Assembly (NCBI GenBank): GCA_044892525.1
Contig: CM097885.1
Location: 218,674,001 to 218,738,000 of the forward strand
From: Schmidtea polychroa
Lineage: Eukaryota
Reading direction: 5' to 3'
Length of the DNA stretch: 64,000 nucleotides
Shown: positions 17,180-51,450 of the stretch, in pieces
Layout of the letters: the number at the start of each line of letters is the position of its first letter
How positions within the stretch are numbered: the first letter of the stretch is position 1
The notes under the pieces: generated by a model
Databases searched by the model: none
Told to the model about the DNA's origin: nothing
What the model saw: the letters and a program-made list of their open reading frames with translations, nothing else
Made by a program: the position numbers and the translations under genes

Positions 17180-18123
17180 ACATAGAGCTCACCTATACTC
17201 TAACCTGTTTATGTTTATGATAACGTTTAGCGGACAATTACGATATGGGAGACATAAAAGAATCAGTTAAAGAAACAATTTGACAATGCGAGGCATGTCA
17301 AAGAACGAATGTTGTGACAAAAAAGATGAAGGAAGAGACAATAAAGCTGACAGCAGAGGTGCCGTGGGAAAAAGTGTACATTGATATATGTGGCCCATTA
17401 CAGAAAACATTCAGAAAGAAAAGATATGTAGTCGCAATGATTGATCAATTTAGCAGATATATATCTCTGACTGCTGCCGCTAAACAGGATGAAGAAATGG
17501 TGAAGGAAACAATACTACAAAAATGGATTCTTAGATTTGGAGCACCAAAGGAAATTCACACAGAGTGTGGAAAAGTATTTGAATCTAAGACGATGAAAGA
17601 GTTTACAAAATCAATGGGAATTACACTATGCTTTTCAAGTCCATATCACAATAATACAAATGGTTTTATAGAACGTCAATTCAGGACAATAAGAGACTAT
17701 ATAAATGCATCATTAAAAGAAAAAAGTAGAACAGATTGGGCAGAAATCATACCAGAGATTAAATTTACCATGAATGCAACATTTCAGAAATCAATTGGAC
17801 GAAGCCCCACAGAAGTAATATTTGGAAGAAAAATAGCTCGAGAACAATTTCATAGTAAAGCGACGATTTCACAAAAAGAAGATACAAGAGAAACAACGCA
17901 GACAAGGAGATCATTCAATATTGGAGATGAGGTTCTGGTAAAAGTAGAATCAAGAACGAAAGACAAGGAAAGATACGAAGGGCCATACAGAATAATGCAG
18001 AAGATCCATGATCGCCGATATCTGCTACAAGACCAAAGTGGGAAAATGCTTCAAAGAAATGTTGAAAAGATGAAGAAATTTCTTAAAGAAGGGGGATGTG
18101 AAGTGCTTTCAGCAGAGGGTTAA
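17180..18123 (+). pseudogene. integrase remnant of a different, older Ty3/gypsy element, with PPT
   Basis: CEACQ zinc-finger half, VYIDICGP, IHTECG (second catalytic D replaced by E), NGFIERQFRT, RYEGPY (GPY/F); purine tract AAAGAAGGGGGA (18085-18096) followed by TG. Confidence 0.85.
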
Positions 18124-18595: not shown

Positions 18596-21500
18596 TAGGG
18601 TTGTTAATATCGGTTTTTCGAGCAATCCGATTATCGTTTGTATAAATCCGATTTTAAACCGATTATCGTTTGCACTTTGCATAACCAAAGCTACTTACAT
18701 TATTACTATTCACGCGCGTGTATAGTATAATTAGTTTTATTCAAAGTTTATACCACACACAAGGAGAATATGAACTGACTGTTTATGTAAAAAGTTAAAG
18801 CATATAAGTAAATTTGTTTTCAATTTCTTCGGTAATTTTCCCTGTATATACTAAAGTATAAATCAAAATAAAACTTTCCGGTGCTGCGGTGGCCTTATTT
18901 TAAAATTAAACATAAACATATCGAAACCATAGATATCAAAAACAAAGATTCCAAAGTGTAAACATTTAAAAGTAAGTACTAAATTCGATTTTATTTTTAA
19001 ATATCAGACAAGTCCTGGTTCATATTCAAAAAGACCAAAGATTCTGCATGATCTGGAAGGAGCCGGTTACGAAGCTTGGTTATCAGACGTCCAGTGGCCG
19101 AAAATAATCGTTCCGATTGCACTGAGGTTGCAGGAATGCATAAGAACTTCCGGGCAAGAATAGCTGTTTTGGGGAAAAGTTTCATATTATGTTTCCACCA
19201 CTCCAGGGCTGTTTCACTTGAGTTTGTCGACCATGATGATTTGACGTAATATTCAAAGTCGGATTCCTCTGGCGCCTGTTGTGCTGCACTATCACCAAGG
19301 AGAAACATAACTGCATCATGATTTGGTCGTGATCTTTTAGTTGGTGGGATCATGTTATCTTCATCCCGACTCGTCTTCGGCTGTTCGGGGCAATCTGGCA
19401 GCTGTCTGATGAGATGACGGACATTTTCATACGCCAGCTTTTTGAAATCGTCCGGAAATCCAGGAAGATGCTTATACATCGGATCGAGAATTGATGCAAC
19501 AACGCATTCGTTTTTTGCTGTTTCATTATTTTCTAATCCAAAACGACGTGAAATATTCTTAGCAAGATCTCTCTTAAATTCACCCATAATGTCAGAATCT
19601 TCTTCTTTAATGGTTAAATGATTTTTCACGAGTCCCCATAACATGGGAAAAACACAAGAGGCTGATGGCTGGCTTTCGGCTGACATGACGGACGTCACGA
19701 TCTGCAACGCTTTTAAAACAGGGAGCAATTCAGTCATCAGTTGCCAATAATCGTCCTTCATGCCCAACGTTTTGGCATCGTTCAATTTCACCACGTTTTT
19801 GTCGCTCAATACTGCAACTACTGGCCATCTCAGTTCTACTAGTCGTTCAAACATGTCATAGACGCTGTTCCAACGAGTCTTACAGTGCTGAATAAGTTTT
19901 AGTGGCGTTTTATCCTTGTCCATGGACAACTGTCTTTTCAGGAGCTCCCCCGTTGCCATTGGGCTATGTGAGAAATGTCCGACTAGTCGTGCTGCAGCTG
20001 ATATACATTTGGAAATTTGATGATATGTGACAACATGGGAGCCCATTGCATTATTGATGCAAAGTTGCAATTTATGCGCCGCACAGTGAACGTCAAACCA
20101 TCCATTGAGATTGCCTGCATGATTGATGTTGGATGCACCATCATGGACACATGCAACAATTTTTTCTTTTATTGACCATTCATCAGCTATACTACATAGA
20201 TGGTCAGCAATGACGGCTTGTATGTGGCGTTGAGTCATCAGAATTGTTCCAAGAACAGGCGTCATCATATTCCAGTCTGTATCAATGTAGCTTGCAGTAA
20301 AACTGAGATAAGCTTCATTGGTGACACTAGTCCAGATGTCGGTAGTGATCGCAATGTCCTTGACATGTTCATGGATATATTTCGACATTTTGACCACTAA
20401 ATTATTTTTCATTGCTGTTAGTCGTGCTGTCATCGTCTGACGACACGGAGGACGATATCCTGGCTCCACTATCGCCATCAATTCACGGAAGGATTTCGAT
20501 TCCACGAGCGAAATTGCCAACATATTTTCGGAAATCAATCTCGCAACCGCAGCCGTAATTTTTTCCTGTTTACTACTCGGACAATTTCTTTGTGTTGTAA
20601 TCAATGCAGTCAATCGTGTTTGAGTATTTGAAGATGTTGTTAATCCACCATGTTTGCTACGCAAATGTGCATGCAAACCAGTCGTAGTACCTCCACTCCT
20701 ACTTATTTTCTGTGTACAGAGCTTACATTGTGCCATCGTCGCCGAAATTTTATCAAAATTGTCCCAGACGTCAGACTTATTTATACGGAAACCCATAAAT
20801 TTAAACTGATTTTGTATTGATTTAGATAATATAAAAAATGTTTATTGAATATTACGTAATATTCAAACTAAACCGCAATTTTCAATTATATGGATTAATA
20901 ATAGCTACTACAAGAGCAACTAACTGAATGAATGGAAATTATATAACAGTTTATATGTTTATAGTAGATTTGAACCATGGATTGGAATTTCCAAAATCTT
21001 GTCATAAATTAAAATCCCGAAAATCAATTTACTTCGACCTGAGCAGCCTCTTAGACATTGTCAAAAGATCAACAAACTGAATAAATTTGAGAATGGTCGT
21101 CACCCAAACTTGAAGTTTGTCCTAGTGTCCAACTCTCTTCCATATTTCAATGGGTAAACAACCAAACATTATGATTCGAGGAATGGCACATGTCTTTCGA
21201 TCTCTTTACATCTGGCTTTCATGAAGATGATGCGGTATGCAATTCAGTTTATTCTGGTTTTAAGTTAAAACCAGAATAAACTTTTAACCGGTTCGCAGAT
21301 GCAAGATATCAGATTGCAAAATAGACCTTCACGGACTAAACACAAAATCGCCGACCTCGGCCACATCTAGTCCCTGTCAAGGGGGTTAATAGCTAAGCTT
21401 CTGTTATGGACTGCAGTAATCAAATCTTTGGTGGCCGATTTCGGCAACAAATATCAGGTTGCCAAACAAAACCGGCAAAATGCAAATACTAAAACACACA

Positions 21501-27592: not shown

Positions 27593-28447
27593 TGTTGGGT
27601 TTTTAATGCAAGTCGGTACTACGGTCTGACTCCTTTGTGTTCTTTTCCAAATAAATAAATAAACAAATAACCCAACACAAAATCTTTATTGACACTGATG
27701 CAGTTACACTTTTACACTTGTATTAGTTTACTCACACTTGATACAATCAGGTTTTGTCTGCACTTTTCAATTGCCAACAAATCTCACACAGGGGTAGATC
27801 TTCCAACGGGAGATATCCCTTTCTGGTACGTTCGATTTTTTTTTTATATGGTTTACTTTCGACTAACTTTGATATTTCCTTTTTCACTCGCGTCAACCTC
27901 TGTTTTCTTTTCTTCGACCAACTGGCATTTTGTTTTCTTGTCAGTTGCTTTTATACTCGCTTGTTAATTGACTTTATTTTTGCCAATTATTTTTGGTTTT
28001 ATTTCCCCCGGGCTTCCTCTTGGAGGTCTAATTTAATTGAAGGGAATTTGCTCATTTCCTTTGACGGCGCTTTTTATCCGGCTAAATTAATTGCCTTCCC
28101 GAAATTGGATTTCTCAATTCGCTCGGGTTTTCCATTGTATCGGGTTTCCCATTAGCTCGGGTTCTCCATTAGCTCGGGTTTCCCATTAGCTCGGGTTTTC
28201 CATTAGTTAATTAATTTTTGTTTTTTTGTAATTTATTCCTTTTAGGGACCCCCCATTGATTTTATTTTATTATAGCTGAACTCGTCTCATTATTCAGCAT
28301 CCGCCCATACCAGTTTCCCCCAGAAAATATTCATTTTTAAAATTTTGATTTTTTAATTAATATTTTGTACTTTAAATTTTTATTTTGAATTTGGTGTTTT
28401 TGTCAATTTTCACCTCATTTTTGTGCCTCTCTTGTTGAACCCCAACA
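27593..28447 (-). repeat. 3' LTR (855 bp)
   Basis: TGTTGGG...CCCAACA; differs from the 5' LTR by 2 substitutions and 1 homopolymer indel that I could see. Confidence 0.97.
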
Positions 28448-28461
28448 TATTTCCCCCCTTT
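28448..28461 (-). other. polypurine tract
   Basis: AAAGGGGGGAAATA immediately before the 3' LTR. Confidence 0.92.
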
Positions 28462-30625
28462 AATTTAGATTCGACCTCGAATCTGTACATTTCTTATGGT
28501 TCAAACAACAACAACAATAGTACCAATACTAATAACAATAACAAAATAATAATAATGTTCTTATAGTTGAAATAACAACAGTGATAGCAACAGCACTTAC
28601 CATTACCATTACCATTATTAAATTATTATAATACCAATAAATTGAGATGAATTTTTAAATGTAAAGGGTGAATGTAAATAAAACATTGAAATAAAAAAAA
28701 TTTGCTTAGAAATTTTCAAAAATTTTACCTAATAGATTTTTGTTGGATTATTTACAAGACAAAAAAATATTAATGTAAAATTTGATAAATTTTCATAATT
28801 AACTATAAAAATATTTGCAATTATCTTAAAATAAATATTTCCCAACAATTAAAACTGTTGAAATAAATTTCATTTTTGTTGATTAAAACATTCTTGTATT
28901 TATTGAAATTAGAATTGATGAAATTTCTCTATTAGTCTAAAATTACTTAGTTGAAAGCTCATTGATATTAATCAGTTTAGTTAAATGCCCAGATGGGATG
29001 AGGCAAATTCATCTGCTGTGTCAGTGGCAGAATTTCAGTGGGCCAATATCGAATTACTCAATTAGATTGCAGTTGAGGGCAATTAAATTATTTACGAAAT
29101 TGGTTTGCGCTTTTGACGGGAGATTCAAAAAGAAAATGATAATTAAATCCACCCATCATCCGATTGAATTTTTTTTTCAAATCTACAATTTGGACAACTA
29201 ATTCAAGGGTAATTTAATTTTGTTTCGCAAAATAGATTTATTTTTTTTTCTTCTTTCAGTTCTTACACGAGATAAGGAGAAAGCCAATCAGAAGAAAGGA
29301 GGGAAGAAACGAATTTTTTTTACTTTATAAAGGCAATCACATTTCCATATCATTTTTCATTGTTTTGTTAATTTTGAAATTATTACCATAGAATATTATT
29401 ACCTGATTATACCGAAATTATAAACAGATTATTCTTAGTTAACATAGAAATATAGTTGGACAAAACTAATAATAAAGTTCGTAAATAATAATTTTATTTT
29501 ATTTTGTTTTTTTCATTTCCCTCTTAGATTATAGATATTTAAACAGAATTTTCGGCACTGGCTTTTACAAGTGTTTGGACAAATATAAAACAAAATAAAT
29601 GATCAACAATGCAAAAAGGAAATGAATATTTTACAGCTTTTGTTTTTTCACACAGACAATCCGAAAAATCACCCCCGAACCGACGGCGCACCGTCTCATC
29701 CACTCCGATCTGACACAGCCGATGTGGACAGCCAAGCCCCCACCCATCGTTGGCTTGACAAATATTAATTTTATTTTTTGAAGTTAATTTTATATTTATG
29801 CATTAAAGTAAGTAAATTTTCTTTTCAATTGAATTTAATAAAAATTTTTGTAAATTTTCTTTTTGATTGAATTAGTATATAAAAATCAATGCAATGTTTA
29901 TAATATTTTGAAACCAATTATAAATTCGTATAATAAACTGCTAATGAATTTCCAACACACATGTAAGTTGATGTGTAAATGATTGAGAGGTTTTCTTTTT
30001 ATTATAGGCGGTTTTATTAAGTGAAACATGGATAATAGTAACAACAACAACAATAATACTAACAATAATAATAATAACAAAACATAAACAATTCTGAAAA
30101 ATTAAAAATTAATTATTTCATTTTAAATAAAAGTTCATCAAAATATTTTCAATTTTCAAATCAAAATTTCTGAAATTTATTTTTTCCCTTAAACTTTTGT
30201 GTCTGTTACTGAAAATGAAATTTGATAATATTTCAACCGAAAATTAGTCGATAAAAACGTAGACATTTTATTTTTGACTAATTAAACATAACAAAACATC
30301 TCAATGCTTTATACTGGAAGATGGGAATGAAATTGTCTAATGAATTTTTAATAATAAATTGTTATGATTTGTGACAACCTGTTTATGTGGCTCTTTAAAA
30401 CTACTCATTTCCAATTGTTGTCCAGGGTAGCCAAACCCCGACAATTGGAAATGTGTTTGTTGTTATACACAATAATAAGTTTATTTATTTATTTAATCAT
30501 TTATTTACTCTCAATTATTTACTTATTTATTCTTATTTTTGGGGTCTAACTGATGCGCTGCCAATAAATACATGAGACAAAATCGAGTTCACAATTATTT
30601 ATTTTATAAATACAATATATAAAAA

Positions 30626-32095
30626 TTAATCCATCTTTATTTCTAATCGTTTCGTTTCATGCCGATATCGTATTATTGTCTCTTCGCGTTCATATACTAC
30701 ACCATTGACAGTGACAGTGTCTCCGACATCAATGTTCGAAGTTGTTTTTCTCTTTTTGGATTTTCTACATTCTGGCATTGGACCATATTCAAGTGTTGGA
30801 TGTATCCTTATCATCGAAATGCTTTCCATTAATGCGACACCTTCTTCCGCAATTTCTAAGAATGATTCATTGGCCCACTTCACTTGAATCAATGGATTTT
30901 CATTATCCATCGTCACATTCTCCTCGAATGTTAAATCAATTTCTTCAGATTCCATTACATCTTCAATTGGAATTTGCGTTAGTTTTTCCGGTATTGCAGT
31001 TGATGTTGATTCAATTTCCCGAAGCTTCTTATATTCGTCCCACGAATATCGCTTTGACGGTTGATTTTTGGGCATCGGTATGTCATCAATCCATTGACTT
31101 TCTACTTTCTGGTATACCTTGCGTATACTTTTCACGTCCTCGAGAGCCGAATGAATACTCATCTGAGTCTGTTCTCCACATATTTCTTTCACCACTGTTT
31201 GTAATTTGAACCATTCTCCCCTTATGGTTACTCCCATGTTCTGAAGTATTGGTGCTGCTGCTAGATCTCGAATGCCGTACAATTGTTCAATCCATATCCC
31301 CAAGTATTGTAATTCTGCATGTAAATCATGGCCGATCAATATCTTGCCCACTGTCAAGCGTTGAATTTCTTTTATTGCCACGTATTGATCACATTGGTTC
31401 CTGCTAGCCACTTCTGTAATTCCATGGATCCTTGAATTAAAATGTCGGATTTTTCCTCTTGGAGTGAGGTATACATCTTTTACTACTTTTCCATAATAAT
31501 TCATAATTGCTATTGCTAAAGGGATCATTTTCCCTTGGTCTGATGTGCCATATTCAGCATCAATGAATAATATTCTATTGCGGATTTCTTCTAGATCCAT
31601 TTCTTTTCGGAGAAACGACATTTTCTTTTTCAACATTTCCTTTGAAATTTTCAATAACATTGGGTCTTCTCCTTCAATTAGATGCATCTGTGGTACCTCA
31701 TCCGCTTCATTCTCAGTTCTGATTTCCACCACCAACGTTGTCTCCTCATTCGCTGCTCGTAGTGTTCTCCACATGAAGTCCTTCTGCAGCTTCCATGATG
31801 TGAATTTTCGGAGTTGCCACCATATTGTATTATCGTTCTTCAGCACTTCCACTGTACCTCTGATCACGTGTATGTGATATTCTTCCTTCTGAGACAACTC
31901 AATTTCATCTGTCAATTTCAATTCTGAATTTCTCCTTATTGTAAACATTCGTATCTTCATTCTTCTGTCATCTATCCGCAAATAATTTGGAATTTGTAAA
32001 TTTTCATTGATTTCGTATAATTGTTGGCTGGCATGATTTTTCTGCATCTTGAAGTAACTGTCGTAGGTGGATCTTGCCCATTGTACTTGTTCCAT
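30626..32095 (-). CDS. proviral accessory ORF (489 aa) with ISG20/REX4-like DEDDh 3'-5' exonuclease domain
   Basis: ILFIDAE (Exo I), IHGIT, KILIGHDLHAEL (Exo II), HSALED (Exo III) with ISG20-like spacing; intact ORF; TTTTAG acceptor with 5 nt between it and the ATG. Confidence 0.85.
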   Translation of the reverse strand: MEQVQWARSTYDSYFKMQKNHASQQLYEINENLQIPNYLRIDDRRMKIRMFTIRRNSELKLTDEIELSQKEEYHIHVIRGTVEVLKNDNTIWWQLRKFTSWKLQKDFMWRTLRAANEETTLVVEIRTENEADEVPQMHLIEGEDPMLLKISKEMLKKKMSFLRKEMDLEEIRNRILFIDAEYGTSDQGKMIPLAIAIMNYYGKVVKDVYLTPRGKIRHFNSRIHGITEVASRNQCDQYVAIKEIQRLTVGKILIGHDLHAELQYLGIWIEQLYGIRDLAAAPILQNMGVTIRGEWFKLQTVVKEICGEQTQMSIHSALEDVKSIRKVYQKVESQWIDDIPMPKNQPSKRYSWDEYKKLREIESTSTAIPEKLTQIPIEDVMESEEIDLTFEENVTMDNENPLIQVKWANESFLEIAEEGVALMESISMIRIHPTLEYGPMPECRKSKKRKTTSNIDVGDTVTVNGVVYEREETIIRYRHETKRLEIKMD

Positions 32096-32527
32096 TTTTG
32101 CTAAAATAGTTATAATTTAACGTTTGAATTTAATTTACTTTTAAAACTAGGGCTGAGATGAAGTATCCGAAGGATACTGTCCCAGCTACTAGCTGTATAA
32201 ATAATAATAATAATAATAATTACCGTTTAGTTAATTGTTGATATATTTTTTTTTTTTGAAAATTAATGGAGTTTAATGGATTTTACCCTCTTTTAATACC
32301 CTTATGAAAATTCCCTTAACCCCGTTTTTCTCTCCCCCTTAACACAGCGCTAACCAATCAAATTGGTTCTTTCCGTTGACATTGAAAAGTGCAGATTCAC
32401 AAGTAAAATAAAATGAAATATTGATCATATCCATAATGAAATAAATATTAATAATATCCATAAAATATTTATACTATATTACTACTACTACTTTATCAAT
32501 TTTTGCATGCAAAGTATTTATGTCTTA

Positions 32528-34602
32528 CTACACAAATGTTTCTTCATAAACGATCCAAGGTCTCGCAATCTCGGATCGATTCGTAGAAGATTTGGGTATT
32601 GTTCGAAATTCAATTAGCACAATGATAATGAGAATAATGAGAGAGATTGTTATAATGAGAGTAGTTATTAATAATGTTACACACACAATTTCACTGTCAG
32701 TTTTTAATGACGATATGGTTTTGTTATTAGTCATTGACTCATTGATGCTAGAAAAGATGATTACGTTGACAGAGCTAGGGGTTCGGTTGGACTGATTTGA
32801 TTTGTTTCGATTTCCATACTGCGAGTTAATAGATGGAATTTGCACAATTTTATTTTCCACTAATGTTAATTGCCATAAATTTGAAAATAGAGAACGTCTA
32901 TAGTATTTTATTTTAATGAACACAAATTTTGACGTCGATATTGGTGAACGTTGACGAAAAGTTAATATTTGAGATTTATTTTTTTCATTTAATATCGATT
33001 GAATTTTTCCATAATAATATAAAATAGCTTTTTGATTGGGCTCCGCTTGTCGGGTAACATTCACTAATTGATTGAAAATATGAAAAGTAACCCGATTTGT
33101 TTCATTAACTAATCGTATCATATGTTGACTAGAGTGTATTCTGATCCATTGACTATCAATTTCAGTTCCGTTTTCATATAAAGATTTTTCATAATAATGA
33201 ATCAGAATATTATAGTTATGATGTACTTTTAAATTTGCATACTTTATAAAGGGTTTTCTGCTATTCAATGTATCTATCGCATAATTTTGAAAAACTGCTT
33301 TTACTTGTTGGGATTCCTGGGGTTCCCAAAATATGTCAATTCCATTTACCAGTGGTTCAATTGATACTCGATTATGTAATCTCTTTGTCCAAATATTAAT
33401 ACGTATAAGATTTTGTATTTTTGTATTATTACTTTTCGAATCCAATTGCGTAATTAACCAAGGGTATTCATAATTCATTGTTAATTGTCTAGCCACATAA
33501 ATATTTTTGGTGCTGTTCAATTTTATTGGGGGTTCGAAATAGTTTATTAGATTATCTATCTCTATTTCTTCTGCTCCTCCAGCATAATAAACCCAAACTA
33601 TTTGAGTACATGTTGAATAAATATGAACTTTGTCTAATAATACAACTGTATTAGTTGCATATAACGGGAATACTCTCACTGCATTTACTGACATTATATT
33701 GATAATCATTACTGTTGTAATCAATAAAACTTTATTGATGTAACTCAATGGAGCAGGGTTTTTTGTAAACTTTTGTTTAATTACTGGGTTCCTTGCATCT
33801 TTATTTGGTTTTGATCTCAATGGATAACGTGATTCATCTTCTATTATCTTCTTGCATCTGTTTACATGAACGATGATTGTCCCAGCCTTTTTATTGTTTT
33901 GTGGACGCAATTTTAAGTTAGTCTCTGTCGTATCACACACTAGATATGGTCCTTTAAACGGTCGTTGCAATTTCGTTGACAAGCCTTTTGTTGGTTCTGG
34001 TTTGTTTATATACACGAGATCTCCAATTTTAATGTCATGCGCCCGTGCGCGTTTATCATAGCATTCTTTATACGCTTCTTGATGATGCCTTATGTTAAGT
34101 CCAGCTTGGATCCATACTGACTGTAGTCTTTCATGCATAGCTATTTTATAATCTGACACATCCATATATTGGGAAATAGGTGACTGAAATTCTAGATCGA
34201 CTGGCATATTGTTTCGCCGTAGATACATGAGATAAAAGGGTGTTTCTCCAGTGCTTTCATTTACTGCATTCCGGTATGCAAATAGGCATGGTTTAATGAA
34301 TAAATCCCAATCCTTTTGTTTCCTATTTACATAGGATGATATCATATTAATTAGTGTCCCATTAAATCTTTCAACTAGACCATCTGTTTGTGGATGATAT
34401 GGTGAGGTACTAAGTTTTAATATACCAAATAAATCTGTGATTGATTTAAATAATTCACTCTGAAAATTTGTTCCTTGATCTGTAAGTAATTTCTTTGGTG
34501 CTCCGTATCGAAAAATAATATTCTCCACAAATATTTTCGCAACTGTTTCTGCTTTCTGATTTGGCATTGCATAAGCTTCTGGCCATTTAGTAAGATAATC
34601 GC
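32528..34602 (-). CDS. polyprotein C-terminal part: integrase core and GPY/F, then signal peptide, glycosylated ectodomain and TM anchor
   Basis: DYLTKWPEAYA, LLTDQG, HPQTDGLVERFN, FKGPY, IVHVNRCK; then VLLITTVMIINIMSVNA and IVCVTLLITTLIITISLIILIIIVLI. Joined to the upstream ORF by restoring one T in the run at 34603-34607. Confidence 0.9.
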
Positions 34603-37600
34603 AAAAACGATAATGTATTTGTTGCCATTTGTTGTTTCTGGCAATGGACCAACGATGTCCATTGCTGTCATTTCCATTGGCGCCTTTGGCACTGGCATAG
34701 GCTTAAGCGGAACTTTTATTTTCCGTCCCGTATTTCGTCTTGTTAGGCATATCTCACACGTATGACACCATTGTCTGACATCTTGTTCCATCGTTTTCCA
34801 ATAATATTTCTGTTTCAATCTTGATAATGTTTTTCGCGCTGATAAATGCCCTCCTAATGCTCCATCGTGATACAACAACAGCAATGCTTTTCGATGTTTT
34901 GTCGGAACAATAATTAACAAATTTTCATTTTGTACACATTTTAACAAACCATCATGAATAATGTATTTATGGTTCTCTTCGGCAATATGTTTCCAGTCAC
35001 TCTCCTTTTTGATTGAGACAGCATGTTGACGTAACTGATTTAATTCCTCGTCATTTTCCTGATCATCTTGTAATTTTTCGATATTATTTACCGTTTTAAT
35101 TGCCAAGAATATTGTATTTTCGCAATTTTTCTCATCTTGATCAACATTATTTTCTACGGGTATTCTCGACATAGCATCCGCATTTGCATTTGATTTTCCT
35201 GTACGATACTTTATCTCGAAATCATATTCTTGTAACGCAATTGACCACCTAATTAATTTACTGGCCGAATCTCTGTGCTTCATTAGCCATTGTAACGGAT
35301 TGTGATCTGTAAAGACGACAAATTTTCTGCCCACTAGATATTGTCGAAAAGTAGTTATCCCATATACCAATGCTAACGTTTCCTTTTCGATTGTTGAATA
35401 ATTCTTTTCATGAGGTTTCAATGATCTGCTGGCATAAGCAATTACATGATCTTTTTCCCCTTCTACTTGCTGTCCTAATACCGCGCCTAATGCGAAATTA
35501 CTGGCATCTGTCATTAATATAAACGGTTTTTTAAAGTTCGGACATCTTAATATCGGCTGTTTTATTAAGCTTTCTTTGAGTTTATCAAACGCTTCTTGCT
35601 GAGCTGTTGTCCATTTAAATTTTGCTTGCTTTTTCAATAACATGTTCAAAGGTTGTGCTACGTGTGAGAAACTTTTAATAAACTTTCTGTAATAACTGGC
35701 TAATCCCAGAAATTGTCGAACCTGATCTACATCCTTGGGAATAGGATATTTCCCAATTTTTTCTACATTTTCTGGATTTGGTTGCAAACCTCGACGCGAA
35801 ATGATATGACCCACATAAACGACTTCAGATTTCCCCCATTCACATTTGGAGGGTTTTATTTTTAAGTTTGCTTCTAACAATCGCTTGAATACTGTTTCCA
35901 CATCCTGCAAATGTTCCTGAAAACTATTCGAAAATATTATAATATCGTCAATATACACTAATGCATGTGGTATATCGCGCAAAACAAAATTCATACCTCT
36001 CTGAAATGTAGCAGGTGCTCCTGTTAATCCGAATGGTAACACGTTAAACTCATATAGACCCTTCCCATCTGAAAATGCAGTTTTCCTTCTATCTTCCTCT
36101 TTGACTTTAAATTGATTGTATCCTTTATTAAGATCTATTACCGTAAAATATTGCACCTCCCCCATCTGATCGAACATTTCCTGTGGAACAGGAATAGGAT
36201 ATGTATCTTTTCTCGTTACTTGGTTCAATTTTCGATAGTCGACACAAAATCTTAAATCACCGTCCTTCTTTTTAACTACTACTATTGATGATGAGAATGG
36301 TGAGGAACTATCTCTTATTATATTGAATTCTTTCATTGCTTTGATTTGCCGATCACTTTCTTCCTGATGTATGTATGGTATTCTGTACGGCCGTAATTTT
36401 ATTGGGGTTTCGTTGAGTAATGGTATTTCATGCTCAATCACCTGAGTGAGTCCCAGATCATACTCATGTTTTGCAAATACATTTCTATATTTCTTTAATA
36501 ATGCACCGAATTCTTGTTTTTGCAAATCCGTCAAATCTTTGCTTGTGATCTGAGGTTCTTTATAAATTTTTATATTTCTCGGTAACTTCTGAGCTTCCTC
36601 TGATTTGATTTTTGTTAATTTTCCCAATTTGGTTTTGGGTTTTATCTCAACGGATCTTGCACTATAATTCGCTATTCTAACTGGTACTGACTTATTTTGG
36701 ACTTTCACTACTTCATCACACATAGGCACATCGTATTTTTCAACCAGCTTTTGATTTGGCTCAAATATGTACTCCTCATCTGAGACCCTCATAACATCTG
36801 CATAGTATATTACTTCGCTTTTTGGTGGTACTTCCAATGTTTGGTTTAGAAATACCTCTCCTACTTCAGGCACTACTTCACCCATTTGTCCTTTTATTAG
36901 TTTTCCAGTTCTCAGATCAAGAGAGATTCCATGTAGTTGCTCCATGACATCCATGCCAATTAGACATTTTACAGGACTTTTTCTCATCACTGATACCCAA
37001 TGAATTATTTCTTGCTCTCCAATTATCAGTTTAACTTCTAATTTTCCAACAATATTTAGTGCATTATGTGACATTGATTTAATAATGTGATTCGTTGGTT
37101 TTATTTTGGCTTTCTCCTGATACGTCAAGAAACTTTCCGCTACTATAGTATGACTTGAGCCTGAGTCTAATAAAGCTTCCACTTTTCTCTTGTTAAACTG
37201 TATGTTTATTCGAGGTTGTTTTCCTCCTACTACTGTTGTCATTAGTGCATAGCTGCATGGTAGACCAAGCATATTCTTTCTTTCAATTTCAGCACTCGTT
37301 GGTTCAATCTTCTCTAATTCGATTGTGATATTATCTACAGGTTTCATTTCTTTTAATTGTTCATTTGGATATATTGGTGCTGTTGGTCTAAATGTCGGGG
37401 TATACCATCTACTAAGAGTATCAATCCCGCTTAATTTTGGCATTGGTTCAAGCAAGAACCTGGACTCTGGCTCTACTTTACTCTTTATTACACTTTTTCG
37501 AAAGCATTTATACTCCGATTCCCCGTTGTTGTTATCATCATTATGATCGTCGTTTTTATCTTCCGACTGACACGTCGATTCCTCACTTTTTCGGCCATTT

Positions 37601-40600
37601 CTTAATTGTGCCCTTACTCTTGCCATTTCTTTAAATTGATGATCTGTAATAAAGAATCTAGCCAACAATGGAATACAACCAATAACTAATTTCCATGACC
37701 ATCCCGATATTGCGTATATTCGATGTACTGACAACATTTGCGACACTACCACCTTTGCCGTTATCATAATCACGTAAATTCCAATTAAACCTGCACATGC
37801 TTGTCCCAAAAACATGAACTTGCCCCAAATCTTTTCCATCGTTTTATATGTAGCTCGTTTGAAATGATCAGGTGTTAGCAAATTTTCGTAATTTACTGTT
37901 CCTTCTCCATTCGGTAATACTGTGTCAATCATTTCTGAAATTATCCGTTCCTTTTTGGATGGAAACAACAAATTCCTTTGAGCTTCTTCGATATCTTCGC
38001 TTGCATACAAGCCCATTTGTGCCATTTTGTTTAGTGATGTGAAATTTATCAGGTATTCTAAATTTGTTAATTCTAGTTTGTCTGGAGTCTTGACCCCACG
38101 ATAATCTGGTAAGGCTATCCATGAGTCTGTAGCTAATCGGTATAAAGGGGCTAATAATCGATTGCATTGCAAAAGTTTTGGTTTAGTTTGTTCATCAAGC
38201 AAGATTCTAGTTATCGGTTCCATAAATCGTACCTTTCCCCCAAAGCTTACTGGTAATTCATTCGTACATTTTTCGTATTTGGCAATTTTCACTGTGACTT
38301 CTTTGCATTTGTAACTGTATAATGCTTCTCCAAATATTCTCGCAAACACTCCATTTTCTGATATTAGCATAGGTGCTACTAAATTTGGATTCGTAATTGC
38401 CATCGCCATCCGATTTCGGAGAATCTCTTTATTCAACTTACAATCGTTCAGAATCATTTCTCTATATACATTTTCCATGATGTTTTGACTAAAATGAAAC
38501 AAATAATCAATTTTATTATTAAAATAATGAGTAAGTTTAATGTCATCTCTGTGAATTTTAATTTTTGCTTCTTCCACAACATTTCTAGACACGTAAACAC
38601 CTTTATAATTTGTTACATATACCATTCGACCACATTTATTTGTGATTTCCTTTTTTATAAATCGCATTCCATCTGCTGGTAACGTAGACATTATAACTGT
38701 TCCCATTTGCTTTGTCCATACTGGGGTTGATTTAATGGTATTATTTGGTCTATAATTCATAGTGAAATTATCTGGTTTATCTCTAAACTGTTCTCCTACT
38801 AGCTCTTTAAAGTTCATAGTTTTTAAGTGCGCTAAATTACACTTATTTGTTTCTACATTATAAACAAGAATCGATTCCCCTGTTTGACAATGTGTTTGTT
38901 TCATATTACAGAATGGATGAGTTTGTAATTTTCCCGTATCATCATCGAAAGCTCCTTCGAACTCTCTCAACTCCGTGAGATACTCTTCTAGCACCACTGT
39001 TTGCTGAATAATTTTACCGTTCATTTTATATGGTTCACCTTCACAGTCGCCATTTGCTTTCATTACTCCCTTTACAATTATTGTTTCTCGTATTCTATGG
39101 TTCAATTTTGCCTTTAAACGAATTTCTGGACTTATTTTTAATTCTCCTGTTTGAAATGCTGCTAGACAGTTTTCTGGAAGCACCTCGACTGGCCTAGGTA
39201 TCGCATGCATTTTTATGAGTGACGTATGGCTCCATTTACCACAATAGAATACAAATGTTGTATGTTTGGCAATACACTCTCTCACTTGAGTTCTTCGCAG
39301 ATCAGACTCTTGATACACATAATATTTTACGTCATTTTCTATTTTTAAACTGCTCGGATACGCACCTGGGCATTCCGACATATCTACTACCGAATAGACT
39401 TTTCCCATTTCAGTTTGGGAACAATCGTACGCAACTAAAGATGATGTCTGTGTAATTATTGCACAAAACGTAATCACCATAAACATCGCCCATGGAAATA
39501 TCATAGTTTTTCTTAGTTCTGGCTTAACTCTTTCATTTACTCGTCTTTGGGGTGGACTCATTTCTTGCTTCTCATTTTTCTTTTCTGTTAGAGATGAACA
39601 CAGTGTTTTCCAACCACCTTTTTCGTTTACCCAGCTCATTAAATATTCGTTTACTAGCCGGGCAGCGATGTCTATCAAATTTTCTAACTTGTCGGACCTT
39701 GCGAACGTATGCGTTCCAATTTCTAAAACAACATAAGTTAAAGCTATTATTATAACTTCCTTATTAATTTCATTTTTTGCCAAATTTTCAATTACTGATC
39801 TCTCGCAGAATGTATTCTCTTCGCCAAATTTCTGCATCACTTCAGGAAGCCTATTCTTCATCTCTTTAACTATTTCTTTCAGTTCATCCTCTACCTCTAT
39901 TTCTATGTCGAACATTGGATATACTGCTTTAACGAGATGTTTCAACATTTTCTTAGTTTCGTCGACGTCCTGTTCTAGCCTCACTAAATATTTCTTTATT
40001 TCATATAAAGTTCTAACTTTCTTATTTTTGATTTCACCATTTATTTCGCCTTCAGGTACAAGTGGCTCTCCTTGTACGTCTGGTTCCGTGGACTGATCTT
40101 TGTTATCAGGATCTTTTTGCTCATTATCACTAACGATTTCATCAATTTCTTTATTTCCCTTAACTTTTTCATCTTGTTCCTCTGTGTCAGGCTTGTTAGA
40201 CTCAATATTTACTTCTAAACTCACTCCTTTTACTACGACTATATGGTTCACTAAATATCCCACTCGTCCATCTCGGATCAAATATCCGTTTTCATCCAGC
40301 TCTTGTGGTACACACCCACAATCATATAGGTATTCATCATCGTCAAGTTCTTCACCTTTGTACATTACTATAATAATTCCATCTTTTCCCAGCGTTTCAG
40401 CCGCTCTCTTCCACAATTTTCGGACCTTTGCACACCAATGCTCGTCTACATATTCCGTTTTGCCATATCCCTCATAATCTAATGCTATCAAAAATGGCTT
40501 TAACTCTACTCTTGCCTTTCTGAGCTCCTTGCCCAACCTTTGCAATAAACTTCTTAATAACTTGGCATATCTGGTTTTCACATGTAAATATGGTCGTATT

Positions 40601-42717
40601 GCATTCACTATTTTTAGTTTATCGTTTTCCTCCATTTCTAATTTCTCAATAATCTGTAACTTCTCATTGATTTCATCTTCATCTCCAATATATAACGCAT
40701 CATTTAATTCCTCTAATATCTCCCTTGAATTCCTTTTGTCTATTATTTTACTACTCATTATTTCATCACTAGTAATTACATTTTCCATTTTTAATTCATT
40801 TGTACTTCCTGGAATAAATCCACAATCTACCAAAAATTCGTCATTTTCTAACAATCTCTCATTAAATCTCAACTCTATCATGCATCCTTCCTTTTTTTCT
40901 TTTAATTTATTCTTTAAATCATTTACACAATCATTTGCCTCACAACGACAACATAGTACACTTTTATCAATCTCGTTTACTACTTCCACCAAGATGGAAT
41001 CTAACCCTGTTTTCTCTCTCAAAGCTTTTCCAAATATTTTCATTAATTCTTTAATTTCTTCTTTATACCTTGGATTCATATTATAGTAGTTAACGCACAA
41101 GCTAATTACACTTTTTATCTTTCTCATACTCAAAGATATTTGACTTAATTCTCTCAACGATTTGATCACTTTAGCCGACTCTATTTCATTATTTCCGATT
41201 AGTTTTTCGATTCTGGTCATTATCATTGTTGCTTTTTCACTTTCTAAATCATCTTTTATAACTCTCCTTTTCGACTCTTTTTCATTCAATTCCTCTTGCG
41301 ACTCATACATCATGTGATTATTGTAGTCCTCTTCTGATTCAAACTTTGACATCAATCGATCCAAACGTCGACCCATTTCTCTCACTTCGCTTTCAATTCT
41401 TTCATTAAAATTATCTGGCTGAATAAAAGCTACATTATCCATCTGCGGTTTGTCACTCTGAAACCTAATCGATTTCTTTAATATGGGCCTTTGGAATTTA
41501 TCCACATTTCTTGGACATGATCTAGCCATGTGTCCATAACTTCTGCATGAATGACATTGAATTTGTCCTTGTAGATTTACTTTATCTCTCTGCGGTGATG
41601 GTGAAGTTGATGTTGATCTTGACCTGGCAAAACAATTTCGTGACACATGCCCTTTTCTTCCGCAATTAAAGCATTGTAAGTTATCATTAGTTCTCGGCTC
41701 ATTAATGTTCGCTTTAGTGAAACTTTTCGCACCATTTCCTTTTAACCAATCAGGCCACATTTGCCTTGGACTCCGTTGTACATTATTTTTGGACCAGCAT
41801 TGATTGCTGTCATGTCCCATTCTTTGGCAATTATCACACTGAATCGGAATTGGGCTTCTCTGTACTCTATTTTTAAACCAGCATTGGTTAACATGGTGTC
41901 CAATCCTTTGGCAATGACTACATTGGATGGGACCTTCCTTTCCATCTGTTTGAATATCTGTTGACTTGTTCGACTCAAATTTGGATCTAAATTTTGGTGA
42001 TGGACTACTTGTTTGTTGAAAACGATTGTTTCTAATTGGGGTTACTGATCTTTCGCTTGCGCCTGAGATGACTGCAAACGATTCTGATTTTGACTGTGTG
42101 CTTTTTAAATTTAGCTCAATTTTCATTGCCTTTTTGATCAATTCATCAAAGTCATTAAAATCAACATAGCATAGAGCCTTTTTAATTTCTTTCTTTACTC
42201 CTGACAAGAATTGATCCTGCAATAATTCTTTTACCTGCTTTGCCATCTCGGCCTGTTCTGGTTTCACTTCGAACGCTTTCTCTGCAAGAGTTGATAAATG
42301 ATAAGCAAACTCACTTACCGATTCCTCTGGCTTTTGTACGCGGTTATAGAATTTCTGTCGCATTATCCGTTTGATATCCCCTCCGATTAATTTCGTAGCT
42401 AAAGCGTCTTTCAACTTGGTCCAGTCATTTGCTACTATTCTTTTATCAATTTGTTGCCACGCTTCTCTGGCTGCTCCTTTTAGGTATAGCGGTAATCTTT
42501 GCACCATTATCGATTGGCTCCATCCATAGGCCGTCGCATACATATAGTAATCTGCCATGAAATCGACAAATTCCAGCGGATCTCCACCGTACTGATCCAC
42601 AGGTAGTTTTTGGCAACTCGCATAATCATTGCCTTCCCTGGCATTCCCCACAGAAACTGTGGACACCGGTGTTTCATCATTATTATTTGTATTATTAACT
42701 TGTCTTTGGGTACTCAT
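34603..42717 (-). CDS. Gag - accessory domains - Env-like glycoprotein - protease - RT - RNase H - integrase N-part polyprotein
   Basis: First ATG at 42717; LPLYLKGAAREAW and FYNRVQKPEESVSEF (gag), 4 x CX2CX4HX4C, AYDC glycoprotein, LLDSGSS (PR, D at 37165-37167), LRFCVDYRKLN and YIDD (RT), TDASNFALGAVL (RH), H..ALGGH..C..C (IN zinc finger). Confidence 0.95.
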
Positions 42718-43100
42718 TATATTCTCTACTAGTTTTTGGCTTCTCAATTTATAAAATGATCTGGTTAACACAGGTTTTACTCGTCTAAAATTTAAAGTAT
42801 TACAATTACAAAATTTACCTTTCGTTTTAATTTTGACTTTTCAACAATCACTCGTTACAAATTTTCCCACTTTGCTTCAATAATAAATTCACCACTTTAA
42901 TAATTCTCGAATAATGTTCACCACTTTCAAATAAACGTTTCACTTCAATATTTATTTATTTAATTATTATTATCTTTTTCCAAATTTTTTTTTTTTTTTT
43001 TTCGATACTTTACTAATCTCAACAAATTTTCACCGACCTTTTTATTCCTCGGTATCACTCAAATATTATCACAATTTCAACAAATCTTCACCGACTTTTG

Positions 43101-43118
43101 ATCACGTCGGGCTCACCA
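43101..43118 (-). other. primer-binding site for tRNA-Trp
   Basis: TGGTGAGCCCGACGTGAT, 4 nt inside the 5' LTR boundary; 17/18 to the avian sarcoma-leukosis virus tRNA-Trp PBS TGGTGACCCCGACGTGAT as recalled. Confidence 0.85.
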
Positions 43119-43214
43119 AATATGTTGGGTTTTTAATGCAAGTCGGTACTACGGTCTGACTCCTTTGTGTTCTTTTCCAAATAAATAAATAAACAAATAA
43201 CCCAACACAAAATC

Positions 43215-43220
43215 TTTATT
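43215..43220 (-). terminator. LTR polyadenylation signal (also 27685-27690)
   Basis: AATAAA about 95 nt before the LTR end; AATAAA at the equivalent position in the diverged LTR near 52515. Confidence 0.6.
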
Positions 43221-43476
43221 GACACTGATGCAGTTACACTTTTACACTTGTATTAGTTTACTCACACTTGATACAATCAGGTTTTGTCTGCACTTTTCAA
43301 TTGCCAACAAATCTCACGCAGGGGTAGATCTTCCAACGGGAGATATCCCTTTCTGGTACGTTCGATTTTTTTTTATATGGTTTACTTTCGACTAACTTTG
43401 ATATTTCCTTTTTCACTCGCGTCAACCTCTGTTTTCTTTTCTTCGACCAACTGGCATTTTGTTTTCTTGTCAGTTG

Positions 43477-43484
43477 CTTTTATA
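43477..43484 (-). promoter_or_regulatory. LTR TATA box
   Basis: TATAAAAG downstream of the U3 tandem repeats and upstream of the AATAAA. Confidence 0.65.
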
Positions 43485-44327
43485 CTCGCTTGTTAATTGA
43501 CTTTATTTTTGCCAATTATTTTTGGTTTTATTTCCCCCGGGCTTCCTCTTGGAGGTCTAATTTAATTGAAGGGAATTTGCTCATTTCCTTTGACGGCGCT
43601 TTTTATCCGGCTAAATTAATTGCCTTCCCGAAATTAGATTTCTCAATTCGCTCGGGTTTTCCATTGTATCGGGTTTCCCATTAGCTCGGGTTCTCCATTA
43701 GCTCGGGTTTCCCATTAGCTCGGGTTTTCCATTAGTTAATTAATTTTTGTTTTTTTGTAATTTATTCCTTTTAGGGACCCCCCATTGATTTTATTTTATT
43801 ATAGCTGAACTCGTCTCATTATTCAGCATCCGCCCATACCAGTTTCCCCCAGAAAATATTCATTTTTAAAATTTTGATTTTTTAATTAATATTTTGTACT
43901 TTAAATTTTTATTTTGAATTTGGTGTTTTTGTCAATTTTCACCTCATTTTTGTGCCTCTCTTGTTGAACCCCAACATTTATGACAATGTGTAAATTAATA
44001 GTGACAAAAGCAAAAGGCAATTTTTAGTCAATGATCCTTTGAAAAAATTAATTTTTAAATAATATATTATTTATTTTGAATATCATTATTTGATTTGATT
44101 TAATATATTTTATTTATTAATTTTATTAAGCAGAGGCGTTAAAAAGAATTTAAAAAACGAAAATCTATCAAATGACGTTCATTTTTCTAAAATATCTTAT
44201 ATAAATGACTTTGTTTTTTTTTAAAAAAGAATGTCAAAATTTAAAAAAATGTAAAATATTCAAATCTATTATTAATTTCATGTATAAATAAATTTAAATT
44301 ATTTTGTTTTTGTTTAAATACCCAAGA

Positions 44328-46980: not shown

Positions 46981-47229
46981 TCTTCCCCCAGGTAATTTAC
47001 TTATTTATTATTTATTATCAAAAATAATAATAATATTAATATTATTATCATTATTATTTGCCTTTTATCCATTGATTTAAATTTTATTGTTAAAATTCTA
47101 CAAATATCGAAAATAAATTTCTATCGTCATGATAATATTATATTACAATAATAATATTATATTTTTAACTTATCTATCAAATACCAAAATATTGTATTTC
47201 ATAATAAATTTAAAAAAATTATTAATTAC

Positions 47230-47843
47230 TTTATCAAAGAAGAAATCTTTACTGAATTTCTTCCAAATTTACATTTAGTTAATTTTACAGAAAGAACATT
47301 GGGTTTCAGTGTGGCATGGAGTTTATTATTCACATAAACCCGATACGCTTCTAATCGATGGCGGATGAAATCCATTGACTGGTTATCGCTGTCATGGACG
47401 ACAGTTGTGTACATCAAAGGTTGCTGCCAATTAATGTAAATTGTATTAGAAACAATCTTTGAACAAGTTAAAAATTGAGGAGGCGAAGGACTCGTTTTGG
47501 TTCTTGCAAACAATGGGACTTTGCACGGATAATGAGTTGTTCGACGATTATCATCATCATTATCAAAATTGTCACGAAATTTATCAATATTTAGAATTGT
47601 TTTTATGCTAACAACAGCTTCCACGTCTATTCTATACATGGTGGCTGGTAATAATCTATCCAAATCTGCTATATGACAGTATTTATCAACATTTATACAG
47701 ATTGATGATTGCTCTTCGGAGTTATCTTTGCCTGAATGAGTTATTTCAGAAATTCTGATAACTTGAGATAAAAGGCGATTTGTTCCATTTACTGATGGAA
47801 GACTCCATTCAATTTTAATTTTATCTAGAAAAGTTTCTTGTAC
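47230..47843 (-). CDS. host multi-FN3 gene exon (about 1.5 FN3 repeats)
   Basis: TTTCAG acceptor; KIKIEWSLP, LDRLLPATMYRIDVEA, SPSPPQFL..TIYINWQQP, YRVYVN. Donor position ambiguous; AA|GTAATT fits the phase. Confidence 0.85.
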
Positions 47844-49213
47844 CTGAAATATTGAAATATCGTCAGATAACATTAGAAATCTTTTAATAAATTTTGAAAT
47901 TTATGAATTAAATGTATTCAAAGTGCAAGTTGAAATTGAAGGCCATTTTAATACAGTTAATCACATTGTGTTATGTACCAGTTGTTAACTGATTAGATGA
48001 TAATTAATAATAATAATTAATAATTTATTAAAAAGCTTAACCTTGAATCAGTAAATATATCGATGTTTTTGATGTATTTACTGATTCATAGTCTCCAAGT
48101 TTTTTAATAAATACAATGGAAAAGAAATCAGTGGTGAAATTTGAAAAAAAGTTCTTATAATAATAATTAATAAACCAATAAAGTACAATCATTCTATCTT
48201 CATTGCAAATTTGACTTTATTTCATTATTTTTCGATATTATGTCAAAGTTTTTATTAACAAGCAAGTAAAATATATTATTTTAATGATTTTTATTACAAT
48301 TTATACTAAATAATTTAGGGTTACGAATGATAATCCATGTTGTTTTATGACTTCAGTTTATCCCTGACCCGGAACTTCAAAGGATTTTAATTTGTCACGA
48401 CACAAGCATGGGTATTTACCGAGGCAACTTTGCTGGTACTGTATTATCGTATTTTGGGATAAGTCGAAACATGAGCTCCGTTACCAAAATTACTAACTTC
48501 TAATTTGCCTTGTCGAGTTCTTTGGCTAACATAAGAAGAAATGACGGTTATTCTATCTCCTCTGGAAATTTTCTTTCATTGTCAAAGACGTATAACAATC
48601 GACTTATGGGCTGTGATTTTAGACCCTATTTAACACTAGTATGCTCCAGTGTCCATATAGGAACACTGATGCATAACTACCGTTCTACACGGTGCTCTGA
48701 TTATAAACTGATCAAACTTTTCCATCAAATGGGAAAAAACAGCCAGCTCACTCTTCTCCATTAAAATTAGATTTTGAGGCTCCTAAAATTCTGTTTCTTT
48801 GCTACTAACCAAATATTTGAACCACAAAACAAAACCATACAAAATTCCTATAACATAAAATGTTTATTAATGAAAATAATCACCAATTTTACAAGCAATT
48901 AAGTCTTCAAAAATATATTGTTTGACATAAGCCTAAGCAACTAATTCAACAAGATTTCACTTATTAATCAAAATAAAACTGGCATTTGATTTTTGTGAAC
49001 TTAGTTCATGTGGATTAATTTTGTATTTGTTTACATATAAAAAAGATACTATTTTTAGTAATTGCATCTTTCATTATACAGTGTGTACATCGTTTTTCCT
49101 CCTTGTCACCGAATTCCATTTAGTGATCTAATATTTTTGTTATAACAAGAACAATTTTTTCCCAAACAATTTTAATCTGTGTATACTACCTTACCTACTT
49201 CTTTGATTGTGTT

Positions 49214-50359: not shown

Positions 50360-51450
50360 ATGAATATCGAGAATATCACCAAACTACTTACTGTTATCTT
50401 CAAGAACACCTATTTTACCTTTTTATAAACAAGTTAAAGGTCTGCCTATGGGTTCTAGCATATCAGGACTGCTAGCAATCATCTTTATGGATAACCTCGA
50501 ACGGCAGACACAAAGGACCATAAAACCTATCGGTTTTTATGCAAGATATGTAGATGATATCTTCATCACGACCCAAAGCAGAAAAGAAGCGGAGGAAATA
50601 TTTCATACATTCAATGCGGCTCACCGAGATATTAAGTTTGAAATCGAATATCCGGAAGGAGATGGATCCCTTAATTTATTGGATTTGAGAATTAAAATAG
50701 AAGCAAATACTCCAACATACGGGTTCTACAGAAAACCAGCTCGCAAAGAAATATTTATGCACCAAAGATCAGCGCTTCCATACTTACAGAAAGTACATGT
50801 CATAAGAAACGAGAAACGAAGAATAGCCAAACGATGCACTGAAAAAAACGAAAACTTTAAAGAACAATCAAATTTCAATAAAATCCTACACAGAAGCCTA
50901 CACCAAGGTGAGGACATTGAAAGAATGAGTTATACCGAAAAATATCTAGGGAATTGACACAAAAGAAGAAGAAATATTTCTATCTGAATATCTCATTCAT
51001 CAGTGACATACTCGACTTCAAGATCCTGAAAGAACTTAAACGTACCGGTCTTCCAATTCGGATAGCACATAAATCTTGGATATTGAGAAGGGCTCTGGCA
51101 GGCAACATAAATAGAGAAAACAATTGCACAATGAAAAACTGCCAGACACCGAAAGATATGTGCTTTAGAAAAAATATAGTCTATTGCATCACATGCAATG
51201 TATGCAATGAAATCTACATTGGAAGTACACTCAGGACTTTGCACTAAAGAGTTAAAGAACATCTAAATCCTGGTGGAACATCCTCGATAAACAGACATCT
51301 CCAACAATGTCAACCAATAGAGGAAAAAAAGATTTTTCAATCGAAATCATAGCTAATGGAAACATCAAAAAAGAAAAATGTCAGATTCAAAGAAGCAATT
51401 CTCATCATAAACAGACAGCAAAAAATCAACACTAAAGAAGAAATCAATGA
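50360..51450 (+). pseudogene. 5'-truncated Penelope-like retroelement (RT plus GIY-YIG endonuclease)
   Basis: YKQVKGLPMGSSISGLLA.IFM, YARYVDDIF, LNLLDLRI; NIVYCITCNVCNEIYIGST.RTL...VKEH; in-frame stops and frameshift. Confidence 0.88.

Follow-up and report, generated by a model that had tools for sequence, protein, structure and literature searches.

A predicted FN3-type membrane glycoprotein encoded behind the integrase of a planarian gypsy element with a gB-like fusogen

The stretch of Schmidtea polychroa DNA analysed here (64,000 nucleotides, hereafter the window) carries a retroelement that encodes a class III fusogen between its Gag and Pol parts and whose integrase frame runs on for a further ~400 codons. 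What does this tail module encode, and does it serve entry beside the fusogen? The initial annotation had read it as a second type-I membrane glycoprotein, a receptor-binding or immunomodulatory partner of the fusogen in a two-protein entry system like those of paramyxo- or herpesviruses.

The element is a young, high-copy LTR retroelement of 16.4 kb on the minus strand of the window. Its LTR pair differs by two mismatches and one indel over 857 aligned bases, and a 4-bp target duplication, TTTA, flanks it; the near-identical LTRs and the duplication point to a recent insertion. The following features were assigned to the element, in the order of transcription.

43123..43976, minus: 5' LTR with TG...CA ends (LTR-versus-LTR alignment, TTTA duplication)
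about 43101-43118, minus: primer-binding-site-like stretch after the 5' LTR
34417..42840, minus: upstream part of the polyprotein, 2,807 codons, stopping after a frame change in the integrase core
37726..39510, minus: class III fusogen (env) with signal-like segment, ectodomain and membrane anchor (PF24664 E 1.5e-86, hydropathy)
34600..34615 (about), minus: break in this copy, where the frame shifts within the integrase core (compared with copies whose frame is open)
33848..34606, minus: integrase core and GPY/F C-terminal domain (rve E 4e-7, MLVIN_C weak, dN/dS 0.06)
30626..32116, minus: separate ORF for an ISG20-like DEDDh exonuclease with a weak DUF7881_N part (ISG20L2 E 1e-10)
27593..28447, minus: 3' LTR, with a purine tract before it

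The upstream polyprotein part comprises, in order, Gag with CCHC knuckles, a ubiquitin-like domain, a Bcl-2-like domain, the fusogen, protease, reverse transcriptase, RNase H and the integrase Zn domain; the Pfam matches of the ubiquitin-like (E 0.003) and Bcl-2-like (E 0.002) domains are both weak and lie under the curated cut-offs. The Bcl-2-like domain (39610-39882) directly precedes the env signal segment (39427-39510), which could act as its membrane anchor after cleavage; cellular Bcl-2 proteins have such an anchor. The TG...CA LTRs, the target duplication, the PR-RT-RH-IN order and the GPY/F integrase end place the element in the Ty3/gypsy group (Metaviridae), and the gB/chuvirus-like fusogen between Gag and Pol places it among the GAG-ENV-POL, HSV/gB-type errantiviruses of Platyhelminthes; the window copy itself, its integrase core broken, lacks the uninterrupted frame of an intact errantivirus copy. 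The in-frame fusion to integrase that had been proposed for the tail therefore stands for the C-terminal part of integrase, whereas the upstream polyprotein is split off in this copy by the frame change. The module does lie where an errantivirus env usually sits, as had been pointed out, but as part of the polyprotein and not as a separate reading frame.

The host genome was searched as an assembly of 781 Mb with four very large contigs, where a 301-base probe gave 318 first-look candidates, 40 of which were scored. Among the 104 best-scoring tail matches, which are 97-100% identical, 22 have an open frame of at least 3,400 codons through the tail and five have a stop inside it (counted by hand from the table); the ranking of this list by score favours intact copies. 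The element has host exons with FN3 domains on either side, at 15443-15814 and 47229-47900 on the minus strand (Pfam fn3 E 6e-12 and 3e-5); as they share its strand, the insertion may lie within an intron of a host gene of FN3 type. Local capture of the tail from these exons was considered and rejected, as they bear no likeness to it. Elsewhere in the window there are hAT transposase pieces, another integrase and an RT fragment (4611-6987, 10080-11252, 18997-20841, 17284-18123, 50364-50957), as well as a further copy, at 16778, of the 17-base repeat unit of the LTR.

All features listed for the module by the initial annotation (GPY/F, linker, signal-like segment, ectodomain, stalk, transmembrane segment and cytoplasmic tail) were found in a 724-codon frame (34702-32528, minus strand), whose integrase C-terminal domain has its GPY motif at 33952. 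The module itself is laid out as follows.

33731..33847, minus: basic linker of 39 residues, a likely release site from integrase (frame, dN/dS comparison)
33680..33730, minus: predicted internal signal peptide with small residues at -3/-1 (hydropathy, conservation)
33386..33640, minus: FN3-like repeat 1 (host-profile score 20.9 versus a shuffled maximum of 13.1; model)
33122..33385, minus: FN3-like repeat 2, the best supported (probability 62%, E 8e-5, score 26.8 versus 14.3)
32843..33106, minus: FN3-like repeat 3, the most divergent (likeness to repeat 2: probability 81%, E 1e-5)
32690..32842, minus: Ser/Thr/Asn-rich stalk, poorly conserved
32612..32689, minus: membrane anchor of 26 residues (hydropathy mean 3.24)
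32528..32611, minus: predicted cytoplasmic tail of 27 residues ending in E-T-F-V, then a stop
32542-32531, minus: E-T-F-V, a class I PDZ-binding-type motif (sequence)

The signal segment has a 19-residue Kyte-Doolittle mean of 1.84 and ends in V-N-A; it and the membrane segment were called from hydropathy and conservation. About ten sequons in a Cys-poor ectodomain had been noted, and the count agrees: the 330 residues (33679-32690) contain one Cys and 11 N-x-S/T sequons, compared with 5.4 +/- 2.0 in shuffled sequences (p = 0.009). With a signal, sequons and a single C-terminal anchor, the module has the sequence features of a type-I membrane glycoprotein and is predicted to be one. The terminal E-T-F-V is an addition to the features noted earlier.

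The fold of the ectodomain had been guessed to be FN3- or Ig-like, and both the AlphaFold model and profile tests support the FN3 half of that guess, with three mutually similar repeats of 85-90 residues each. When compared with a profile built from 28 FN3 domains of the host, repeats 2 and 1 exceeded all of their column shuffles (20 per repeat) and reached probabilities of 62% and 18%, respectively; repeat 3 alone did not match this profile. The AlphaFold model built on a 12-row alignment is all-beta (pLDDT 77.8, pTM 0.63) and contains seven-stranded beta-sandwich repeats of ~90 residues, as in FN3 domains; a model from the single sequence (pLDDT 30) was set aside. The best Foldseek matches are three-domain fibronectin fragments (E 8e-10) that span repeat 3, followed by receptor phosphatases, neogenin, Tie2 and cytokine receptors. 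Whole-model TM-scores are only 0.2-0.3, and 0.25-0.3 for the fibronectin fragments, because the domain angles differ; VIA Z values are 9-10 for the ectodomain model and 9.1-9.2 for repeat 2 against FN3 domains of CD45, DCC and fibronectin (rmsd 2.1-2.5 over 75-79 residues). In a library of viral structures, FN3 proteins were matched, including Anguillid herpesvirus ORF109 and a protein of lymphocystis virus, and the neighbours in the ESM Atlas are FN3 membrane proteins, a weak match with scores of 0.85-0.90 and recognition below the mark. By sequence, Pfam fn3 had no match in the tail, a genome-wide search with Pfam fn3 picked up genes of the host and none of these tails, and the best PDB sequence match had E 0.41. 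On the predicted model, the ectodomain fold is FN3-type; at only 7-13% identity to animal FN3 proteins, no donor gene can be named.

The search for homologues called for by the initial annotation gave three matches among 1.84 billion representatives, at 24-33% identity; one of them begins at an integrase end followed by a signal, and another is a full signal-to-tail piece. A word-indexed search with the tail found no homologue of near-length, and one with the tail profile matched only the protein P0125. An integrase scan of metagenome contigs gave five loci, whose frames of at least 200 codons are ordinary gypsy frames without such a tail, and the same scan of viral contigs gave none. Contigs of four sequencing runs (type presumed), compared with 28450-43600, had no spliced-message-like joint for the tail; this comparison is silent on expression.

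Within the S. polychroa genome, the module is in the integrase frame in a subfamily (A2, tail 83% identical) and in five further families (B-F), in at least one copy read of each; for family F, the two copies read are one Pol-deleted and one frameshifted. Tails of the sister families B, C, D and E are 33-45% identical to that of the window family, with integrases at 78-82%, and the family F tail is 50% identical. In-frame conservation among related elements, on which the original reading depended, thus holds across six families in this genome at 33-50% identity. Searching the genome with PF24664 returned almost exclusively family E matches. ISG20-like exonuclease homologues follow the tail in families D (33%) and F (50%) and were not found in the 5.5-5.9 kb behind the tails of families B, C and E.

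Selection on the three repeats is purifying, with dN/dS of 0.18 in the comparison with subfamily A2 and 0.28 in that with family D, as opposed to 0.06 for integrase; in the comparison with copy L093, the integrase value is meaningless because that copy is broken upstream. The comparisons with families B, C and E have reached saturation at synonymous sites, and yet the tail frame is still open. Among 30 copies of the window family, there are 20 synonymous changes (254 sites) and 19 replacement changes (946 sites), a ratio of 0.26. Positive selection, which the initial annotation had proposed to look for among copies, was not found in the domain averages: these lie at 0.14-0.31 and never exceed 1 bar the membrane segment, whose value of 1.1 on 26 codons is not meaningful. 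A hydrophobic segment equivalent to the signal is present in all eight alignment rows extending that far, and only three sequons recur (in five, seven and six of ten aligned rows), the rest being family-specific. Fusogen ectodomains are 70-76% identical between families whose tails share 33-45%. Judged by these alignments, the tail changes far more rapidly than the fusogen, but under constraint, and it is very probably a real, selected membrane protein. That the frame might instead be a passively carried fragment captured from the host, or open by chance, could be suspected from its lack of a Pfam family and of a near-length homologue in the word-indexed search; we consider this scarcely credible, as dN/dS of 0.18-0.28, a frame that stays open in six families despite saturated synonymous sites, and conservation of the signal, anchor and terminal motif all speak against it, and the dN/dS analysis largely refutes it.

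A search with env-pol listed at least 120 long proteins, and we read the ends of 25 of them, picked by env domain or rank. In a quick, midpoint-rooted RT-RNase H tree, the element and 16 of these relatives form a clade (SH-aLRT 98), and 16 of its 17 rows end in a signal, an ectodomain and an anchor, the exception being P0006. The ectodomain slot is filled variously by (i) one to three FN3-like repeats; (ii) an Ig domain; or (iii) a small Cys-rich domain, as in P0015 and P0017. The FN3-like repeats of the relatives have the pattern L-x-P-x-T-x-Y, which we take to be FN3-like, and the window family is only weakly similar (best E 0.003 at a search size of 1,000) to the repeats of distant relatives, which contain Cys. 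Of the two proteins in the sister pair of the clade, P0019 combines a signal with an Ig domain (Pfam Ig_3 E 4e-8) and lacks a strong anchor, and P0025 is tailless. P0006 and P0025 possess the fusogen and lack the module at their ends, though both may be incomplete. An extra aspartic-protease-like domain stands between integrase and signal in 9 of 18 env-clade relatives read (P0004, P0005, P0006, P0007, P0008, P0011, P0012, P0017 and P0048, with D-T/S-G motifs), and P0048 has three such domains as well as ankyrin repeats. One clade member, P0016 (NCBI HBK71150.1), is listed in the database under a genome bin of Flavobacteriaceae as a hypothetical protein, probably through eukaryotic contamination of that bin.

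The C-termini of these proteins share a further property. A class I motif, S/T-x-V/L/I, ends 13 of 22 anchored tails versus 2 of 101 other gypsy proteins retrieved in the same search (background 5%), and a terminal Val is found in 15/22 versus 6/101; the set of 22 omits the unanchored P0019, P0006 and P0025. Binomial values for the motif are overstated, as the rows are related, while the tails are otherwise unalignable. Family E ends in E-T-R-L and family F, found after this count, in E-T-W-V; the class I form is missing in 9 of the 22 tails, and family C has no such motif. A C-terminal motif of the class I PDZ-ligand type thus appears, from these counts, to be conserved beyond chance.

Some copies have lost Pol and kept the module. 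One 3,513-base deletion, with an 8-base microhomology and corresponding to window positions 37231 to 33718, is common to seven places; it takes out everything from protease through integrase, and the env linker runs on in frame into the signal. The loci recorded for this derivative are L028, L056, L057, L071, L072, L138-L142 and L185-L188. Two that were examined have near-identical LTR pairs and differing target duplications, which indicates insertion by helper enzymes; one has an unbroken frame of 2,263 codons that starts in Gag and reaches the terminal motif, and the other breaks inside the tail. In family F, an independent in-frame deletion removes RT to integrase (L181, G000:C52). This retention of the frame counts for little, because each case has a chance of 1/3 and the first search favoured open frames. 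In L068, a copy of the window family, the part from integrase end to signal is shortened by 171 bases, again in frame. Ahead of its 3' LTR, the window copy has ~2 kb of non-coding DNA (28448-30400) without a match in the Pol-less copies L186 and L188, where a different sequence of similar length takes its place.

Taking these features together, we propose, with a probability of about 0.5, that the tail is an accessory adhesion or attachment protein that acts beside the fusogen and favours cell-to-cell passage. The polyprotein would cross the ER membrane four times, leaving Gag in the cytosol, the fusogen in the lumen, Pol in the cytosol and the tail protein in the lumen. Host signal peptidase would release two type-I glycoproteins from it, and the element protease would free integrase from the signal-peptide stub; made from one ER-threaded polyprotein, both surface proteins would be produced one to one with Gag and Pol. 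Since the C-terminus of the fusogen is joined to Pol, it is the second protein that would supply a free C-terminus for PDZ scaffolds, which may hold it at cell contacts or on one membrane face. The FN3 stack, raised on its stalk, would bind the neighbouring cell or matrix and so promote passage from cell to cell, fusion itself being left to the fusogen.

Several other roles can be assigned to the same protein, and the FN3 fold cannot decide between adhesion and signalling, because FN3 stacks also form cytokine receptors and decoys. The tail may be a host-modulating surface protein of the producing cell that imitates an FN3 receptor, acts as a decoy for one or competes for PDZ scaffolds; it would then shield cells in which the element is expressed, as its other cargo would, and have no entry role. 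We hold this to be possible, if rather doubtful. The fold matches include ectodomains of cytokine receptors and receptor phosphatases, fish large DNA viruses encode FN3 membrane proteins (Anguillid herpesvirus ORF109, lymphocystis virus), the ectodomain is swappable, and the host-modulating cargo of the element (the Bcl-2-like and ubiquitin-like domains in the polyprotein and the ISG20-like exonuclease ORF) favours a modulating role. The tail, however, is not like any particular host receptor, matching neither Pfam FN3 nor the two FN3 exons of the window, and a stalk-raised stack produced one to one with the fusogen suits an envelope protein equally. Superinfection exclusion, in which the tail on cells with an active copy occupies or removes the receptor, would accord with the fast divergence of families in one genome and with the retention of the module in non-autonomous copies. 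Nothing speaks specifically for it, and the hundreds of same-family insertions indicated by the 318 first-look candidates weigh against it, so that we regard it as very unlikely.

The two-protein entry system suggested by the initial annotation survives in part: a predicted second type-I protein with FN3-like domains does lie downstream of a class III fusogen of Monjiviricetes type (PF24664), but it is not universally present and has no single fold. That it is an obligatory receptor-binding or triggering partner, as in herpes- or paramyxoviruses, would fit its origin in the same polyprotein as a gB-like fusogen, its presence in 16/17 clade members and its staying in frame with env in Pol-less derivatives; moreover, according to a recent survey of envelope-carrying gypsy elements (Chary and Hayashi, PMC13524379), gB-type errantivirus entry is unexplained because HSV gB needs helper glycoproteins, gD/gH/gL. 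Such a partner would be expected in every fusogen-bearing relative with one conserved fold, whereas unrelated folds occupy the slot, P0006 and P0025 do without the module despite their env, and the tails diverge far faster than the fusogens (33-45% versus 70-76% identity). Several class III fusogens, such as rhabdovirus G and baculovirus GP64, act alone, and we take the predicted fold of the tail to differ from those of gD, gH/gL and paramyxovirus HN/H/G. We therefore consider an obligatory role improbable; a swappable, sometimes absent and fast-evolving ectodomain fits an accessory protein better than an obligatory fusion trigger.

The accessory attachment protein that we prefer would have several consequences. 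The module is a concrete candidate for a helper of the gB-type fusogen, unannotated behind the integrase of the same elements. As an adhesion or attachment protein, it would make the element a retroelement with two surface proteins from one polyprotein, and its swappable host-like ectodomain could explain tissue preference; as a modulator, it would add a receptor mimic to the known cargo. The host is a tractable model animal, and planarians silence and re-activate elements of this kind in a tissue-specific manner (PMC8532177). More speculatively, and as a tentative proposal only, these elements might be enveloped retro-viruses whose surface carries two glycoproteins cut out of a single polyprotein. 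One would be a gB-like fusogen; the other, derived from a host and exchangeable, would be an FN3/Ig attachment protein that determines cell tropism. Its PDZ-type tail would steer budding to cell junctions, and the Pol-less derivatives, with Gag, fusogen and attachment protein retained, would spread as helper-dependent defective particles.

The class to which the element belongs is already published: it is a GAG-ENV-POL gypsy element and a close sister of Smed_errantivirus_1/2 and Burro. Like Smed_errantivirus_1 and Smed_errantivirus_2, as described in PMC13524379, it has a Ty3/gypsy Pol, a gB-like fusogen between Gag and Pol and many young copies. Compared by eye with the env sequences given there, the window copy agrees with Smed_errantivirus_1 in 63 of 70 residues and family E with Smed_errantivirus_2 in 68 of 69; the window family is a sister of Smed_errantivirus_1, not identical to it, and family E, near Smed_errantivirus_2 in env, carries the same tail. 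The terms 'fibronectin', 'accessory', 'exonuclease' and 'Bcl' are absent from the main text of PMC13524379, and its passages, Discussion and supplement rows that we consulted do not describe a membrane protein behind integrase.

The planarian Burro/GYPSM1 elements encode a single polyprotein of Gag, ubiquitin-like domain, Bcl-2-like domain, env and PR-RT-RH-IN, together with accessory ORFs (PMC6431247). The window element shares with them the order, with env in frame between the Bcl-2-like cargo and the protease, and differs in size, at 16.4 kb with 855-bp LTRs compared with over 30 kb in the same source. None of the BIR, MATH, ankyrin and dUTPase domains of Burro/GYPSM1 cargo was found by Pfam in the window copy. 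The text of section 7 of PMC6431247 mentions no second membrane protein. A description of the post-integrase membrane module was likewise not found in the running text of the other literature searched.

Among cellular proteins, the closest parallels are the animal single-pass FN3 proteins (fibronectin fragments, receptor phosphatases, DCC/neogenin and cytokine receptors), which the tail resembles in predicted fold, stalk, single anchor and PDZ-binding-type end. It differs from them in its 7-13% identity, the lack of a Pfam fn3 match, its place inside a polyprotein and the absence of a catalytic or long signalling tail. Herpesviruses, with gB and gD/gH/gL, and paramyxoviruses, with F and HN/H/G, likewise combine a fusogen with a second surface glycoprotein in one genome; unlike those partners, the tail has another predicted fold and is exchangeable between lineages. 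HTLV-1 Env and rabies G are viral envelope proteins with C-terminal PDZ-binding motifs, and the tail resembles them in its short cytoplasmic part with an end of the E-T/S-x-V/L type. In contrast to both, the PDZ-type motif is found here on the second protein, the C-terminus of the fusogen being joined to Pol.
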